This document shows positions 9,983 through 27,035 of a DNA stretch of 27,035 bases, piece by piece. The notes beneath the pieces are model-generated. The model worked only from the letters and a program-made list of their open reading frames with translations, did not search any database and had not been told where the DNA came from. The stretch lies in the IMG/VR virus record IMGVR_UViG_2617270961_000004. The stretch is one strand, 5' to 3'. A program made the translations under genes and the position numbers. Position 1 is the first letter of the stretch; the number at the start of each line of letters is the position of its first letter. This DNA is from a virus (Duplodnaviria > Heunggongvirae > Uroviricota > Caudoviricetes).

Positions 9983-12540
9983 CGTCCACCTCCGGAGAAC
10001 AGGCCACCATCACGCATCTGTGTCTGAATTTCATCACGGGCCCCCTTGCGGGCCATGTCATACACCGCCTTCAGAGCAGCCGGACCTATCTGCCCGTTCG
10101 TGCCGTCGTTGTTAATCACCACATGGTTATTCTGCTCAAACGTCCCGGACACCTGCGACCGGCTGTCAGCCAGACTGCCCGGTGTACCGACATAACCACC
10201 GGTGGCATAGCCGCGCATCAGCCGGTAGAGATTCCCCACGCCAATCCGGCTGGTTGCCTCCTTCGTGAAGACAAATTCACCACGGTGAACAATCCCCGCT
10301 GGCTCATATTTGCCGCCGGTTCCCGTAAATCCCCCGGTCGCAAAATGGAATTTCGCCGCAGCGGCCTGAATGGCTGTACCGCCTGACGCGGATGCTCCAC
10401 CACTGGCAGCACCGCCAATGGCGCTGCCGATACTCCCGACAATCCCCACCATTGCCTGCTTAAGCAGAATTTCTGTCATCATGGACAGCACGGAACGGGT
10501 GAAGCTGCGCCAGTTCTGCTCACTGCCGGTCAGCATCGCCGCCATATTCTGTGCAATACCATCAAAGGTCTGCGTGGCTGCACTTTTAACCTGCGACATA
10601 CTGTCCGTGGCGCTCTCTTCCCACTCACTCCAGCCGGACTTCAGGCCTGCCATCCAGCTCCCGCGAAGCTGGTCTTCAGCCGCCCAGGTCTTTTTCTGCT
10701 CTGACATGACGTTATTCAGCGCCAGCGGATTATCGCCATACTGTTCCTTCAGGCGCTGTTCCGTGGCTTCCCGTTCTGCCTGCCGGTCAGTCAGCCCCCG
10801 GCTTTTCGCATCAATGGCGGCCCGTTTTGCCCGTTGCTGCTGTGCGAATTTATCCGCCTGCTGCGCCAGCGCGTTCAGGCGCTCCTGATACGTAACCTTG
10901 TCGCCAAGTGCAGCCAGCTGGCGTTTGTACTCCAGCGTCTCATCTTTATGCGCCAGCAGGGATTTCTCCTGTGCAGACAGCTGGCGACGTTGCGCCGCCT
11001 CCTCCAGTACCGCGAACTGACTCTCCGCCTTCCACAAATCCCGGCGCTGCTGGCTGATTTTCTCATTCGCTCCGGCATGCTTCTCCAGCGTCCGGAGTTC
11101 TGCCTGAAGCGTCAGCAGGGCAGCATGAGCACTGTCTTCCTGACGATCGCCCGCAGACACCTTCACGCCGGACTGTTTCGGCTTTTTCAGCGTCGCTTCA
11201 TAATCCTTTTTCGCCGCCGCCATCAGCGTGTTGTAATCCGCCTGCAGGATTTTCCCGTCTTTCAGTGCCTTGCTCAGTTCTTCCTGACGGGCGGTATATT
11301 TCTCCAGCGGCGTCTGCAGCCGTTCGTAAGCCTTCTGCGCCTCTTCGGTATATTTCAGCCGTGACGCTTCGGTATCGCTCTGCTGCTGCGCATTTTTGTC
11401 CTGTTGAGTCTGCTGCTCAGCCTTCTTTCGGGCGGCTTCAAGCGCAAGACGGGCCTTTTCACGATCATCCCAGTAACGCGCCCGCGCTTCATCGTTAACA
11501 AAATAATCATCCTTGCGCAGATTCCAGATGTCGTCTGCTTTCTTAAACGCAGCCTCTGCCTTAATCAGCATCTCCTGCGCGGTATCAGGACGACCAATAT
11601 CCAGCACCGCATCCCACATGGATTTGAATGCCCGCGCTGTCCTGTCTGCCCAGGTCTCCAGCGTGCCCATGTTCTCTTTCAGGCGGCGGATCTGGTCATC
11701 AAACCCTTTCGTTGCGGCTTCGTCCGCCGCCTGCAATGCCCCGGCTTCATCGCCGGAACGCTGCAACTGAGCAACATACGCAATCTGCTCCGCCGTCACG
11801 TTATGGAACTGGCGCGCCATCGCCGTCAGCCCCGACGTCGGGTCAGTGGTCAGCTTCCCGAAGGCTTCAGCGACCTTGTCCACCTCCACACCGGATGCAG
11901 AAGAGAAACGCGCCACACTCTGGCTGATGGACGCAATCTGAGCCTCACCGCTTACCCCCGCCTTAACCAGTGCACTGAGTGACTCGCTGGTCTGGTTAAA
12001 CGTCAGCCCTGCCGCCTGCCCGGCTCTGGACAGGACCAGCATACGATCTGCCGTCAGACCCGACTGATTACCGGAAAGGACCAGCGTTTTGTTGAAATCG
12101 GACAGGGTTGAGTTACCCTGATACCAGGCATACGCCAGCGCACCGGTCGCCACCGCCAGCGAGGTGGCCCCGACCATCGGCAGGGTGATCGCACCGGCAA
12201 GCCCCCGGAACATGGGGATCATCCCGCCGAAGGAGTCCTTAACCTGACCACCCTGTTGCAGCAGGATCAGCCACGGGCTTTGCCCGCCTGCAAGCTGCGT
12301 GGCCACGTCGGTGAACTGTGCAGGCAGCATACGCATGGCGGCTTTATACTGCCCGACGGAAATCCCCGCTTTCTGTGCAGCCAGCGCCTGTCGGCTCAGC
12401 GACTGTTCAACGACTGCCGCTGTTTTTTTCGCATCAGTTTCCGTACCGAAAAAATGACGCCTGACTCTGGCCATCTGCTCGTCAAATCTGGCCGCATCCA
12501 GACTTAAATCAACGACCAGATCGCCTACCGGTTCAGCCAT
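9979..12540 (-). CDS. H: tail tape measure protein H (853 aa)
   Basis: 853 aa, MAEPVGDLVVDLSLDAARFDEQMARVRRHF..., long coiled-coil-like Ala/Gln/Glu/Lys-rich middle and Gly-rich C-terminus; length matches lambda H. Confidence 0.95.
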   Translation of the reverse strand: MAEPVGDLVVDLSLDAARFDEQMARVRRHFFGTETDAKKTAAVVEQSLSRQALAAQKAGISVGQYKAAMRMLPAQFTDVATQLAGGQSPWLILLQQGGQVKDSFGGMIPMFRGLAGAITLPMVGATSLAVATGALAYAWYQGNSTLSDFNKTLVLSGNQSGLTADRMLVLSRAGQAAGLTFNQTSESLSALVKAGVSGEAQIASISQSVARFSSASGVEVDKVAEAFGKLTTDPTSGLTAMARQFHNVTAEQIAYVAQLQRSGDEAGALQAADEAATKGFDDQIRRLKENMGTLETWADRTARAFKSMWDAVLDIGRPDTAQEMLIKAEAAFKKADDIWNLRKDDYFVNDEARARYWDDREKARLALEAARKKAEQQTQQDKNAQQQSDTEASRLKYTEEAQKAYERLQTPLEKYTARQEELSKALKDGKILQADYNTLMAAAKKDYEATLKKPKQSGVKVSAGDRQEDSAHAALLTLQAELRTLEKHAGANEKISQQRRDLWKAESQFAVLEEAAQRRQLSAQEKSLLAHKDETLEYKRQLAALGDKVTYQERLNALAQQADKFAQQQRAKRAAIDAKSRGLTDRQAEREATEQRLKEQYGDNPLALNNVMSEQKKTWAAEDQLRGSWMAGLKSGWSEWEESATDSMSQVKSAATQTFDGIAQNMAAMLTGSEQNWRSFTRSVLSMMTEILLKQAMVGIVGSIGSAIGGAASGGASASGGTAIQAAAAKFHFATGGFTGTGGKYEPAGIVHRGEFVFTKEATSRIGVGNLYRLMRGYATGGYVGTPGSLADSRSQVSGTFEQNNHVVINNDGTNGQIGPAALKAVYDMARKGARDEIQTQMRDGGLFSGGGR

Positions 12541-22887: not shown

Positions 22888-23065
22888 TGTTCATTCCACG
22901 GACAAAAACAGAGAAAGGAAACGACAGAGGCCAAAAAGCTCGCTTTCAGCACCTGTCGTTTCCTTTCTTTTCAGGGGGTATTTTAAATAAAAACATTAAG
23001 TTACGACGAAGAAGAACGGAAACACCTTAAACCGGAAAATTTTCATAAATAGCGAAAACCCGCGA
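22888..23065 (-). promoter_or_regulatory. cosB region (terminase small-subunit binding R-site repeats)
   Basis: Inverted copies of an 11-bp element (ggaaacgacag at 22917-22927 and ctgtcgtttcc at 22954-22964) and a further gaacggaaacac near 23028, between the Nu1 start and cosN. The sequence reads as the reverse complement of the lambda left end as recalled. Confidence 0.7.
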
Positions 23066-23077
23066 GGTCGCCGCCCC
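23066..23077 (-). other. cosN, 12-nt cohesive-end site (GGGCGGCGACCT on the minus strand)
   Basis: Plus strand aggtcgccgccc is the exact reverse complement of the lambda cohesive end GGGCGGCGACCT. It is flanked by sequence matching the lambda left end (22888-23065) and right end (cgtaacctgtcggatc..ccggaaaggacccg at 23078-23108). Confidence 0.9.
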
Positions 23078-23275
23078 GTAACCTGTCGGATCGCCGGAAA
23101 GGACCCGCAAAATGATAATAATTATCATCTGCATGTCACAACGTGCATCTACGCCATCAAACCACGTCAAATAATCAATTATGACGCAGGTATCATATTA
23201 ATTGATCTGCATCAACTTAACGTAAAAACAACTTCAGACAATACAAATCAGCGACACTGAATACGGGACAACCTC

Positions 23276-23509
23276 ATGTCAACGAAGAACAGAACCCGCA
23301 GAACAACAACCCGCAACATCCGCTTTCCTAACCCAATGATTGAACAAATTAACATCGCTCTTGATCAAAAAGGGTCCGGGAATTTCTCAGCCTGGGTCAT
23401 TGAAGCCTGCCGCCGGAGACTGTGCTCAGAAAAAAGAGTTTCTCCTGAAGCAAACAAAGAAAAGAGTGACATTACTGAATTGCTCAGAAAACAGATCAGA
23501 CCAGATTGA
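23276..23509 (+). CDS. small basic putative ribbon-helix-helix (Arc/CopG-like) DNA-binding protein, 77 aa
   Basis: AT-rich ORF on the strand opposite the phage late genes. Basic N-terminus (MSTKNRTRRTTTRN), then a beta-strand-like IRFPNPMIEQINIAL and helix SAWVIEACRRRL resembling the RHH fold. Weak SD; family assignment is inference. Confidence 0.5.
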   Translation: MSTKNRTRRTTTRNIRFPNPMIEQINIALDQKGSGNFSAWVIEACRRRLCSEKRVSPEANKEKSDITELLRKQIRPD

Positions 23510-23565
23510 AGCAATTTAGATAATCGTGCAGACTACACCCCTCATATCACATGGAAGGTACTACA

Positions 23566-23976
23566 ATGGCTCAGGTTGCCATTTTTAAACAAATATTCGA
23601 TAAAGTGCGAAATAATTTAAACTATCACTGGTTTTATTCTGAACTAAAACGTCACAATGTCTCACATTACATTTACTATTTAGCCACAGAGAATATTCAT
23701 CTTGTTCTTGAAAACGATAATACGGTTTTAATAAAAGGACAGGGTAAGGTTGTAAATGTAAGATTTTCAAAAAATAAATGCCTTATAGAAGCCACCTTAA
23801 AGGGATTCAAATCAGGAGAGTTATCATTTTACGAATACAGGAAAAATCTTGCTACAGCAGGGGTTTTCAGATGGATTACAAATATCCACGAAAACAAAAG
23901 GTATTACTATACCTTTGATAATTCATTACTCTTTACTGAGAACATTCAGAACACTACACAAATATTTCCGCACTAA
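23566..23976 (+). CDS. hypothetical protein, 136 aa; tentatively DUF1398 / YbcV-like prophage protein
   Basis: AT-rich ORF with a GGAAGG SD 7 nt upstream of the ATG at 23566; the track ORF starts 5 codons earlier at an ATG with no SD. No signal peptide or transmembrane segment. The length equals that recalled for the E. coli DLP12 YbcV protein, which lies next to lysis genes in that prophage; the identity is unverified. Confidence 0.55.
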
Positions 23977-24263
23977 ATCATAACGTCCGGTTTCTTCCGT
24001 GCCAGAACCGGACTCGCTGGCATGATGAAATATGTGTACCCGGTAACCCCGGTGTGCATCGTTTTTGATTATTCCCACACACTCGCGCAGAAGGAGTTCC
24101 CCGTCGGGCTACGGTCTCTGTTAATACGGGAATACGGCGACGATACAGCGCATGATGTGTCAGGCTTGAATACCTTTATCCTTTAAAAGGGATATCAGTT
24201 AAGTTATCCCGTGTAGGGTATAAGCCATTATCAAACTCTGTAGGAAGTGGCTTTTGTAATGGC

Positions 24264-24290
24264 AATAAAAAGCCCCGCGAATGCGAGGCT
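24264..24290 (-). terminator. rho-independent terminator candidate downstream of Rz
   Basis: Hairpin agccccgc-gaat-gcgaggct (7 bp, one mismatch) followed on the minus strand by TTTTATT; positioned ~170 nt after the Rz stop. Confidence 0.5.
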
Positions 24291-24463
24291 AAATCCTGGT
24301 ATTTGTAATGACTGGCTCTTATCTCAACGCAGCCCCTTACCGCGCGCAAAATGCTCAATATCAAGCATCAGCAATGAGATGTTTAATCTGGATTCACTCC
24401 AGAAGTGAGCACCACCCTGTCTACAGAGCCAGATGTGAAGGATGATGAGTAAAATTATCGCTA

Positions 24464-24931
24464 TCATCGAAGGCATTGCGTCCTGATGTATTCCTGAAGC
24501 GTTCTCAGTGCTGTTTGGTCGCGGATAATTCCGTCCCGGATACCGAGAACGTTTCGTCCAGCAACTGGAGAGAGTTCGACGGTGGCATCATTGCCCATGC
24601 CGGAGGCGCTGGAGGTTTCGACTGAGGATGGCACAGGGCATTTTCCTTTGACGAGCACCCGACCACCATTATCAAGCTTGCGCCGAAGAGCATCATTTTC
24701 AGCTTTCGCATCAGCTAACTCCTTCGTGTATTTATCATCGAGTGCATCAGCATCACGCTGGCGCTGCTGCATGTCAGTAATGGTGGCGTTCGCCTTCTCC
24801 AGTTCACTGGCCTTGTTATCGCGCTGTTCTTTGTAGGCGATTGCATTATCACGGTAATGATTAACAGCCCATGACAGGCAGACGATGATGCAGATAACCA
24901 GAGCGGAGATAATCGCGGTTACCCTGCTCAT
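24464..24931 (-). CDS. Rz: spanin inner-membrane subunit Rz (i-spanin), 155 aa
   Basis: [38 protein letters not shown]...: N-terminal transmembrane helix then a coiled-coil periplasmic domain. ATG at 24929-24931 overlaps the R stop as ATGA; the track ORF starts 4 codons upstream at a GTG. Confidence 0.85.
24505..24711 (-). CDS. Rz1: spanin outer-membrane lipoprotein subunit Rz1 (o-spanin), 68 aa, embedded in Rz in the +1 frame
   Basis: [21 protein letters not shown]...: signal peptide plus lipobox (VVGC), Pro-rich mature part ([13 protein letters not shown]); AAGGAG SD 7 nt upstream. Fully nested inside Rz as in lambda. Confidence 0.75.
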
Positions 24932-25425
24932 TGTTGCCCCCACAAACAGACCTCACGCTCAATCTCACGACGAGTCATCAGGCCTTTCCATTGCTTACCG
25001 CCAGCGTATGCCCAGCGACGTAGCTGGTCACATGCGCCCTTGATATCGCCCTGGTTTATTTTGCGAAGAAGAGTAGATGTTCTGAAATTGCCTGCGCCCA
25101 CGTTATAGACGAACGAGTAAAGAGCGCCGCGCGTTGTTTCCGGTATATCGACTTTGATGTACGGGTTAATTTGTCTGGCTACCGTGGCAAGGTCTTTATT
25201 CAGGAGGGCTTTGCATTCTGCTTCGGTATACGTTTTACCGGGAATGATGTCTTTTCCTGTATGCCCGTGACATACAGTCCATACGCCAACGATATCTTTG
25301 TATGGTATGTAGCTGACACCTTCCAGACCATCGTTACCACTTGGGCCAGTGATTAACACTGATGCTATAGCAATTGCTCCGCCACCAATAGCAGCAGCAA
25401 CGGCTTTTCGTAATGATGGAGGCAT
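24928..25425 (-). CDS. R: SAR endolysin (phage-21 R-type lysozyme, T4-lysozyme-like GH24), 165 aa
   Basis: N-terminal signal-anchor-release segment ([20 protein letters not shown]) followed by the lysozyme catalytic region ([23 protein letters not shown]). Length and sequence match phage 21 R as recalled; this is not the lambda R transglycosylase. Confidence 0.9.
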
Positions 25426-25640
25426 TATTCACCTCTCGCAGCCTTGCGCTTATCTTCTTTAATCTTGAAATAAAGGTTTGTCAGGTACGTCAGCAGGCCA
25501 AATACCAAGCTACCCAGCACACCTATTGCTGCCCACTGTGAGGGCGTGACTTTATCGAGCAGCTGTAAAAACCAGTAGCCAGCACTGCCTGCGGAGGTGC
25601 CGTAGGCAATGCCCGTTGTTAACTTATCCATGGATTTCAT
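25425..25640 (-). CDS. S: pinholin S21-type (class II holin), 71 aa, dual-start motif
   Basis: [28 protein letters not shown]...[23 protein letters not shown]...: two transmembrane domains, Met1-Lys-Ser-Met4 dual start (antiholin/holin), charged C-terminus. GGAGGTGAGG SD. Stop overlaps the R start by 1 nt. Confidence 0.9.
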
Positions 25641-25735
25641 AGCCTCACCTCCGCAAATAACGGATGGTGTACACGGTTCGGAACGAAGAGGAAAGGTATA
25701 GAAGTTACATTAGCGTAAGGCTTGAACATCTATTC

Positions 25736-25766
25736 AAAAAGAAAAACGCCGCGATTATTCTGGCGT
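25736..25766 (-). terminator. weak terminator-like hairpin plus T-tract between the AraC-like gene and S
   Basis: 5-bp stem acgcc/ggcgt with an 11-nt loop, followed on the minus strand by TTTTTCTTTT; ~60 nt after the AraC-like stop and ~100 nt before the S start. The stem is weak, so low confidence. Confidence 0.3.
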
Positions 25767-25827
25767 AGCTGAAAGCATCATACAATTATCAAATACGAAA
25801 ATTACAAAATCATTAAAACGCATCACG

Positions 25828-26568
25828 TTACATCATGTCTTTTTCTAAAAAAAATCTTGATGAATATTGATGGGGAGGAACACCAAAATACCTTCTGAAA
25901 ACACTTACAAAATATGACGTGTTTTCATAACCGCATATCTCAGCAACTTTTCCAACAGAATATAAATTGTAGCTTAATAACCTTTCCGCCATCACCATTC
26001 GCTCTTCAAGAATTAACTTACTAAATGATAAGCCTTCGTGCTTTAATTTTCTTTTTAACAGACTTTCACTCAGATACAGTCTTGAAGATATATCACAAAG
26101 TCTCCATGCTGCAGATATATCCGTGTGAACAATAGCCTTAACTTTACTTCCTAAACTATTAAGACATCCAAATAAAAAACTTTGCACTATTTTCTCTGAA
26201 GATAAGATAGCAAGACATGCAAGTGATATTTGATTTCTAACAAAATCCACAGTTCTGCCATCACAATTCAAGCATGCAATCAAGTTCTTTAACAATGAAA
26301 AATCTTCACATTCCACCATCACGTATGCCGGATAAAACCTTCTTACAGAAAAAGGTGAGAGTGTGTTGCTTTTAAAGAAATCATTAACTGTTTTCTCTTC
26401 AACATCTACGATCATTACATGATCTATATTTGATGAAAAAAAATCTTTTAAATTGTAATCAATGAGAACAGCACTTCCTTTTTTAAACAAAATATCTTCT
26501 TTACCAATTCGGACATCAAACGAGTTCAACACCAAAATGATAGAACATATGTATGGCATATTATCCAC
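25828..26568 (-). CDS. AraC/XylS-family transcriptional regulator (GadX/YdeO/AppY-like subfamily), 246 aa
   Basis: C-terminal AraC-type HTH (LYLSESLLKRKLKHEGLSFSKLILEERM...VGKVAEICGYENTSYFVSVFRRYFGVPPHQY). Strongly AT-rich compared with the flanking phage genes. GGTGG SD. Subfamily assignment is from recalled similarity to E. coli YdeO. Confidence 0.85.
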   Translation of the reverse strand: MDNMPYICSIILVLNSFDVRIGKEDILFKKGSAVLIDYNLKDFFSSNIDHVMIVDVEEKTVNDFFKSNTLSPFSVRRFYPAYVMVECEDFSLLKNLIACLNCDGRTVDFVRNQISLACLAILSSEKIVQSFLFGCLNSLGSKVKAIVHTDISAAWRLCDISSRLYLSESLLKRKLKHEGLSFSKLILEERMVMAERLLSYNLYSVGKVAEICGYENTSYFVSVFRRYFGVPPHQYSSRFFLEKDMM

Positions 26569-26780
26569 CTGATATCATTGGGGTTACACCAGGTAAGTAT
26601 AGGTGGAAAATCAATATTCGCCAGTTCAACAATAAGGAAAATTTCATTGCATCACAAGTATAAAATTATGTATTTAACTCACAAAGACAAATTATTAAAC
26701 CAATCCGTTATATTATATATAGCTGCGTGGAATCATAATATTATATATTTTGACTGGCATGTTTACCAACTTTAAGTTGC

Positions 26781-27035
26781 GGTAATGACTCCAACTTATT
26801 GATAGTGTTTTATGTTCAGATAATGCCCGATGACTTTGTCATGCAGCTCCACCGATTTTGAGAACGACAGCGACTTCCGTCCCAGCCGTGCCAGGTGCTG
26901 CCTCAGATTCAGGTTATGCCGCTCAATTCGCTGCGTATATCGCTTGCTGATTACGTGCAGCTTTCCCTTCAGGCGGGATTCATACAGCGGCCAGCCATCC
27001 GTCATCCATATCACCACGTCAAAGGGTGACAGCAG
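26781..27035 (-). mobile_element. IS1 insertion sequence, right-end 255 bp (truncated by window edge)
   Basis: Terminal inverted repeat ggtaatgactccaacttattgatagtg beginning at 26781, followed by sequence matching the insB 3' end of IS1 as recalled. The rest of the element lies outside the window. Confidence 0.9.
26796..27035 (-). CDS. insB: IS1 transposase InsB, C-terminal part (partial; 5' end outside window)
   Basis: Translation ...[76 protein letters not shown] matches the InsB C-terminus; the reading frame stays open to the window end. Confidence 0.85.

Follow-up and report, generated by a model that had tools for sequence, protein, structure and literature searches.

The last 255 bases of the window, the 27,035-nt stretch of phage DNA analyzed here, are one end of an ordinary IS1, on its IRR side. 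We propose that an IS1A-type element has transposed into a lambda-like prophage without blocking late transcription; its target was an AT-rich (27–32% GC) spacer within the cargo ("moron") segment that separates the lysis genes from the late promoter/terminator. On the evidence below, this is the reading that we consider probable. The copy itself is ordinary.

Results and Discussion

Positions 26781–27035, on the minus strand, constitute the IRR-proximal 255 nt of an IS1A-type element. They match the complete 768-bp IS1A-family copies of E. coli LF3-1 and PSJ-32-1 at 255 of 255 bases. The end opens at 26781 with the terminal repeat GGTAATGACTCCAACTTATTGATAG, and its first 25 nt are identical to those that start the complete IS1A copies at loci L002 and L021. 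The right terminal inverted repeat, GGTAATGACTCCAACTTATTGAT (26781–26803), has the length of about 23 bp and the start GGT(G/A)ATG typical of the IS1 family; its 23-nt extent is what we take to be that of IS1 in general, not a computed boundary. The last 79 codons of insB and the stop codon (26796–26798) occupy 26796–27035 on the minus strand, ending about 15 bp from the IRR, and the encoded 79 residues match Pfam DDE_Tnp_IS1 (PF03400) over profile positions 53–131 of 131 with an E value of 1.8e-43. This transposase frame runs toward lower coordinates, a direction shared with the AraC-like gene and all of the late genes. The first-pass annotation had recognized an IS1 end at 26781–27035, and the complete identity, the terminal repeat and the Pfam match confirm that assignment.

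The truncation of the element is an assembly break, not biology. Over its final 11,208 bases, the window is identical, as the reverse complement, to the end of contig JNSA01000011.1 (95,213 bp; GCA_000704985.1). Contig and window end on the same base, and the record holds no sequence past 27035; the IS1 is cut there because the draft contig breaks within a repeat. The same IS1 junction recurs in three further samples, one represented by an NCBI draft genome, one by an ENA metagenome assembly and one by a Logan run assembly. Their contigs end 28, 77 and 102 bases inside this IS1, and a fourth contig breaks one base short of the last flank base, at window position 26779. Since the junction is common to four independent assemblies, an assembly chimera is ruled out as its source: the junction is genuine and belongs to a lineage. 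Most draft contigs with this exact regulator allele also carry the insertion. Among 5,426 complete E. coli genomes, the junction is found only in strain ET650, where the IS1 is of a different isoform, and the source lineage is absent from this set. An exact-match scan of GTDB species-representative genomes with the 31-nt left junction gave no match, as expected for a collection that holds one genome per species. When the other IS1 end was sought through the ybgA-like protein, the representative (P0001, 99% identical) was found only in other, Qin-type prophage contexts.

The region containing the AraC-like and holin genes is present in 843 of the 5,426 complete genomes, and in most of these the match ends exactly at the IS1 boundary. 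The IS-free relative EC291 (locus L001) displays the empty site as ...CAACTTTAAGTTGCATCTCAATTG... and gives the gene order around it. In the direction of late transcription, its order is rusA, ylcG, Q (125 aa), a blc-like lipocalin gene on the opposite strand, a YbgA-family gene (319-aa product, DUF523+DUF1722), a 351-bp spacer, the AraC-like gene, essD/S, rrrD/R, Rz, nohD/Nu1 and the large terminase gene. The order Q-blc-ybgA-AraC-S is also found in two isolated phages, Escherichia phage IdasGreatGrand and phage 1H12, whose regulators are 98.4% and 81.9% identical, respectively. In EC291 and both phages, the Q-to-S interval spans about 3.1 kb and holds three cargo genes.

The IS1 is located in the 351-bp spacer between the ybgA-like and AraC-like genes, where the GC content is 32% (27% around the target), compared with 54% for the whole window. 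In the relatives, the ybgA-like stop codon precedes the target by 131 bp, and the S start codon follows it after 1.14 kb; farther upstream, the Q stop codon is 1.96 kb away and a tR'-like terminator about 1.8 kb. The target sequence itself, TTAAGTTGC (26772–26780), abuts the IRR; it is single-copy in the EC291 empty site and duplicated in ET650. The Q protein of the relatives belongs to PF06530 and matches the structures of the Q21 antiterminator as a distant relative (E 1.9e-8). A terminator-like hairpin with a T run (L001 12245–12222) follows the Q stop codon at a distance of about 100 nt, and a plausible promoter, TTGCTG-17-TAACAT, read by eye, precedes this hairpin. From their position, we regard this promoter and hairpin as a candidate for the expected pR'/tR' arrangement. 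Q and the hairpin lie 1.8–2.0 kb past the IS1 site in EC291, ET650, PSJ-32-1, IdasGreatGrand and 1H12, that is, outside the window.

By comparison with these relatives, the IS1 has neither Q nor pR' as its site: it lies within the late transcription unit, in the leader that bears the cargo. It had been proposed that the element precedes the AraC-like gene and the lysis genes and lies between S and the expected Q/late promoter, and this position stands. The more specific suggestion, that the insertion falls at the expected place of Q and the late promoter, was mistaken: the site is the ybgA/AraC spacer, about 1.96 kb past Q in relatives, and because the Q-to-S interval holds three cargo genes, Q and pR' are about 2 kb farther away than had been assumed.

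In the late-operon leader of this phage group, the blc-type outer-membrane lipocalin gene (L001 11664–12188, plus strand) is antisense to late transcription and scores 315 bits against its NCBIfam model (cut-off 267), and the YbgA-family gene (L001 10512–11471, minus strand) is TudS-related. Together they are unusual cargo for a phage.

A complete insertion at this site is found in E. coli ET650, whose 768-bp IS1 (L003 9182–9949) sits at the very same nucleotide as the window's copy and reads in the same direction. The 9-bp sequence TTAAGTTGC is directly repeated on either side of it, and intact ybgA-like, blc and Q genes lie beyond. The ET650 element is another isoform, with 21 mismatches in 255 comparable bases, and its flanks are nearly identical to those of the window. 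The two copies may be independent hits on one site, or they may descend from one insertion that was later converted by another IS1. In the window, the IRR-side copy of the duplication is the one at 26772–26780, and the second copy would fall past the contig end. A second, inverted IS1 in ET650 (L003 7442–8208) is bordered on one side by the 3' flank of the AraC-like gene and on the other by the tail-fibre-assembly gene; everything between the 3' side of the regulator and tfa, and with it every lysis and morphogenesis gene, is missing from this strain, which has kept the regulator between the two IS1 copies.

We would expect the source genome of the window likewise to contain a complete 768-bp IS1 with the ybgA-blc-Q segment beyond it. 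In a simple insertion, the IRL end of the element, ...AAGTTGGCAGCATCACC, would be followed by TTAAGTTGCATCTCAATTG and the ybgA-like gene, and the far flank would read TTAAGTTGC-ATCTCAATTG before the ybgA-like gene.

The spacer has been struck repeatedly. At least nine independent IS1 events, in both orientations, are found in or near the 351-bp ybgA/AraC spacer in E. coli genomes (mapped on EC291 coordinates, L001 10298–10995; loci L021, L022, L023, L024, L002 and L004). PSJ-32-1 carries an IS1 at L001 10298–10306 with the target duplication ACCAATCTG, and the Qin-type prophage of H2 carries one at about 10322–10330 with the duplication CTGCGTGCA. In MB1 and three other strains, an IS1 at about 10302 is joined to host DNA near ybhB, and the regulator and all late genes are lost; in MLI104K1, with the IS1 at about 10485, ybgA is deleted. 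The insertions in MINF_9A (10956–10964) and LF3-1 (10988–10995) lie inside ybgA. AMSCJX03 and 19M19 have an IS1 upstream of the regulator in the opposite orientation, placed there without mapping to the nucleotide. These events mark the spacer, as judged from the genome comparison, as an IS1 hot spot.

A divergent IS1-family element also occurs inside the AraC-like ORF itself, after codon 7, in Qin-type prophages from metagenomes (L015 about 2036–2801, also L016–L018). Its end reads GGTGATGCCTCTAATTAG..., and it has Pfam matches to both InsA and InsB; blastn detected no similarity between this element and IS1A.

The same events bear on whether the side of the prophage beyond the contig end is intact. 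The IS1 end in the window could mark an IS1-mediated deletion or inversion that detached the Q side (ybgA, blc, Q and perhaps the early region) and left the prophage structurally defective. Within the spacer, two of the five events in complete genomes are accompanied by adjacent deletions and join the IS1 to noncollinear DNA: the MB1 group, with its loss of the late and AraC-like genes, and MLI104K1, with its loss of ybgA. These two events, and the loss of the whole lysis and morphogenesis block to the second, inverted IS1 of ET650, make rearrangement on the unseen side a real possibility, and the contig end hides exactly that side. Conversely, the other three of the five (ET650, PSJ-32-1 and H2) are simple insertions, each with a 9-bp duplication and undamaged flanks, and the late genes visible over 27 kb are intact and phage-like, which argues against an old, decaying remnant. 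We therefore regard such a rearrangement as a serious possibility but a good deal less likely than a simple insertion. It is also the realistic route by which this prophage might be defective, at that same minority chance. On the simple-insertion reading, the main long-term effect of the IS1 copy would be to serve as a substrate for IS1-mediated deletions like those in ET650, MB1 and MLI104K1.

The gene immediately downstream of the element, at 25828–26568 on the minus strand, encodes an AraC/XylS-family regulator and is part of the cargo of the late-operon leader (32% GC; ORF and Pfam evidence). The product has 243 aa if translated from ATG 26559, or 246 aa from GTG 26568. Its C-terminal double helix-turn-helix is recognized by both HTH_18 (E 1.1e-14; 54.9 bits, cut-off 33.6) and HTH_AraC (E 3.9e-11; 43.2 bits, cut-off 26.6). 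Against the YdeO equivalog model NF007407, the protein aligns over residues 1–236 with 127.5 bits; it is not YdeO, because this score is below the cut-off of 348. The alignment identifies the regulator, at the level of sequence, as a distant, end-to-end relative of YdeO. The first-pass annotation had given the distance from the IS1 end to this gene as 212 bp, which is correct for the start at GTG 26568; it becomes 221 bp with ATG 26559, the start used by RefSeq in identical genes of relatives.

Between the IS1 and the AraC-like gene, 221 nt of the AT-rich spacer remain (26560–26780, minus strand), which we examined by promoter scan and by homologue comparison. Two promoter-like matches were found, TTGGTA-18-TATAAT at 26769–26740 and TTGTGA-16-TATACT at 26684–26657; as consensus matches, such assignments are no commoner than in shuffled sequence. 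The better of the two, TTGGTA-18-TATAAT, begins 11 bp from the IS1 and is not conserved in the 1H12 homologue. Conservation of the spacer with this divergent homologue is confined to about 150 proximal nt, which the IS1 leaves intact. The promoter scan revealed no hybrid outward promoter spanning the IS1/flank junction; by eye, a TTGGAG in the IS1 end has no acceptable –10 hexamer at 16–18 nt. Rfam and tRNA scans found nothing in window positions 23000–27035.

Within IS1, the sole promoter-like site is the IS1 promoter in the IRL. That promoter is weak and self-repressed. There is no terminator-like site between the IS1 transposase frame and the AraC-like gene, and weak read-out from the transposase frame into the gene is possible. 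An effect of the IS1 on expression of the AraC-like gene is likewise possible. Under the simple-insertion reading, the gene would at most have an altered upstream context, with IS1 DNA starting 11 bp upstream of one promoter-like –35 hexamer.

It has to be considered whether the insertion is adaptive, relieving the silencing of a YdeO/PsrB-like regulator or otherwise altering its expression, with the recurrent hits partly selected. Insertions of IS1 and IS5 upstream of flhDC are well known. At bgl, IS1 and IS5 activate the operon from upstream (PMC11043490), and the window resembles bgl in having an IS1 in AT-rich DNA shortly upstream of the promoter region and an AT-rich downstream gene (PMC11043490, PMC9678765). 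The region here is 27–32% GC, and the regulator's class has reported H-NS-dependent regulation: the relatives AppY, PatE and PsrB control acid-resistance genes, and H-NS is one of the global regulators on which appY expression depends (PMC10057817, PMC10877973). Like AppY, PatE and PsrA/PsrB, and in contrast to the chromosomal YdeO, the window's regulator is prophage-borne; its alignment with the YdeO model runs from end to end, at a score (127 bits) below the equivalog cut-off of 348 (PMC10057817, PMC10877973). The at least nine independent events in both orientations, and the presence of the insertion in most draft contigs with the exact regulator allele, would also fit selection. The locus differs from bgl and flhDC, however, in that other IS events there destroy or delete the gene: the positions are scattered and include the deletion of the regulator in MB1 and the element inside its ORF at L015–L018, and an IS1 lies near this region in only about 1–2% of the 843 complete genomes.

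IS1 prefers AT-rich DNA. This target preference fits the events better than selection does, because their positions are scattered, both orientations occur, some are destructive and only about 1–2% of the genomes are affected. We therefore consider an adaptive origin improbable. By analogy with bgl and flhDC, the spacer might act as a recurrent landing pad on which insertions switch the regulator on or off, one of them being carried by the window's lineage and fixed in many isolates, but we hold this to be equally doubtful.

The late region on the visible side is complete. The lysis cassette (24464–25640, minus strand; ORFs and Pfam) comprises holin S (25425–25640), lysozyme R (24928–25425) and Rz (24464–24943), with an Rz1-like lipoprotein ORF (lipobox VVGC) out of frame within Rz at 24505–24711 on the minus strand. 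It is followed on the same strand by Nu1/A and the head and tail genes, which is the order of a lambdoid late operon. The full-length ORFs are Nu1, A, W, B, C, D, E, FI, FII, Z, U, V, G/T, H, M, L, K, I, J, lom, stf and tfa, in addition to S, R and Rz; ORFs were assigned to these genes by length, on the known map of lambda. Gene calls in the late region include Nu1, GpA, gpW, portal, S49 peptidase, D and E. Isolated lambdoid phages (Kati, PhiR70_1, Chlobot, mEp332 and others) cover 86–92% of the last 25 kb of the window at 96–98% identity. Judged by its genes, the visible side of the prophage is not defective.

Several smaller features accompany these genes. In relatives, RefSeq annotates a 50-aa ORF just downstream of Rz, at a position equivalent to 24324–24476. 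Between Rz and cos/Nu1, plus-strand cargo at 23276–23976 comprises a DUF3950 gene (YlcI/YnfO family, 77 aa) and a DUF1398 gene (a 141-aa ORF, 136 aa as annotated in relatives), the latter in a low-GC stretch (31–37%) at about 23400–24000. At the start of the window, inside the tail-fibre-assembly gene, positions 44–242 on the minus strand are a full-length match to Rfam IS009 (RF02111; 220 bits, gathering score 117), which despite its name is a candidate small RNA and not an insertion sequence.

IS1 insertions are classically polar on ordinary operons. The present copy is located between the candidate pR'/tR' and S, and the first-pass annotation had suggested that it could cut the late genes off from Q-dependent transcription; in the strongest form of this idea, S, R, Rz and the morphogenesis genes would be uncoupled from Q, and neither lysis nor particles would result. 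Several observations make such a block unlikely. Q proteins render RNA polymerase terminator-resistant over the whole late operon, to intrinsic and Rho-dependent termination alike, and Q-lambda has been described as a proven polarity suppressor (PMC12360218). A simple scan of both strands of IS1A found no intrinsic-terminator-like hairpin. Even without an IS, the leader of phages isolated as viable particles measures 3.1 kb and has an antisense gene in it, and the late genes of the window are full-length and without decay. Furthermore, Stx2a phages with IS629 downstream of stx2 were assembled from induced cultures prepared for phage sequencing, that is, IS-bearing phages were recovered after induction (PMC4587872). 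Taken together, strong polarity seems to us a poor explanation, and a transcriptional block by the IS1 is unlikely, as far as the analogy with known Q proteins goes.

We propose instead that the simple insertion makes the Q-to-S leader about 3.9 kb long, up from about 3.1 kb, and that Q-modified polymerase would read through the IS1 and continue late transcription, as expected from general knowledge of Q proteins. The 777 bp added to a genome of about 46–48 kb would presumably still be within lambda packaging limits. The IS1 thus probably does not disable the phage.

Mobile elements in this part of lambdoid genomes have precedents. DLP12 of K-12 reportedly carries an IS5 in nmpC, within its Q-to-S cargo region. 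The IS629 downstream of stx2 in Stx2a phages is likewise a mobile element among cargo, between the late promoter and the lysis genes (PMC4587872). Both involve other IS families, whereas the window's IS1 is intergenic and disrupts no gene; moreover, DLP12 is grossly deleted, in contrast to the complete late region of the window. Compared with IS1 of the IS1A/IS1R type from Escherichia coli and Shigella, the window's element agrees in its terminal repeat, the C-terminus of insB and all 255 visible bases, as well as in its AT-rich target and in the 9-bp duplication seen at the same site in ET650. No difference is visible over the one third of the element that the record includes before the contig end.

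Conclusions

The window ends in a routine IS1 copy in a prophage, which in itself matters little. As its apparent partial state is a draft break, no biology is to be read into the truncation. An insertion sequence in the leader of a late operon is, on its own, no evidence of a defective prophage. The IS1 hot spot upstream of the AraC-like gene, for its part, seeds deletions and may explain the decay of prophages at this locus. If insertions there did switch the regulator, which we consider improbable, they would bring lineage-specific changes in acid-stress or virulence regulation.
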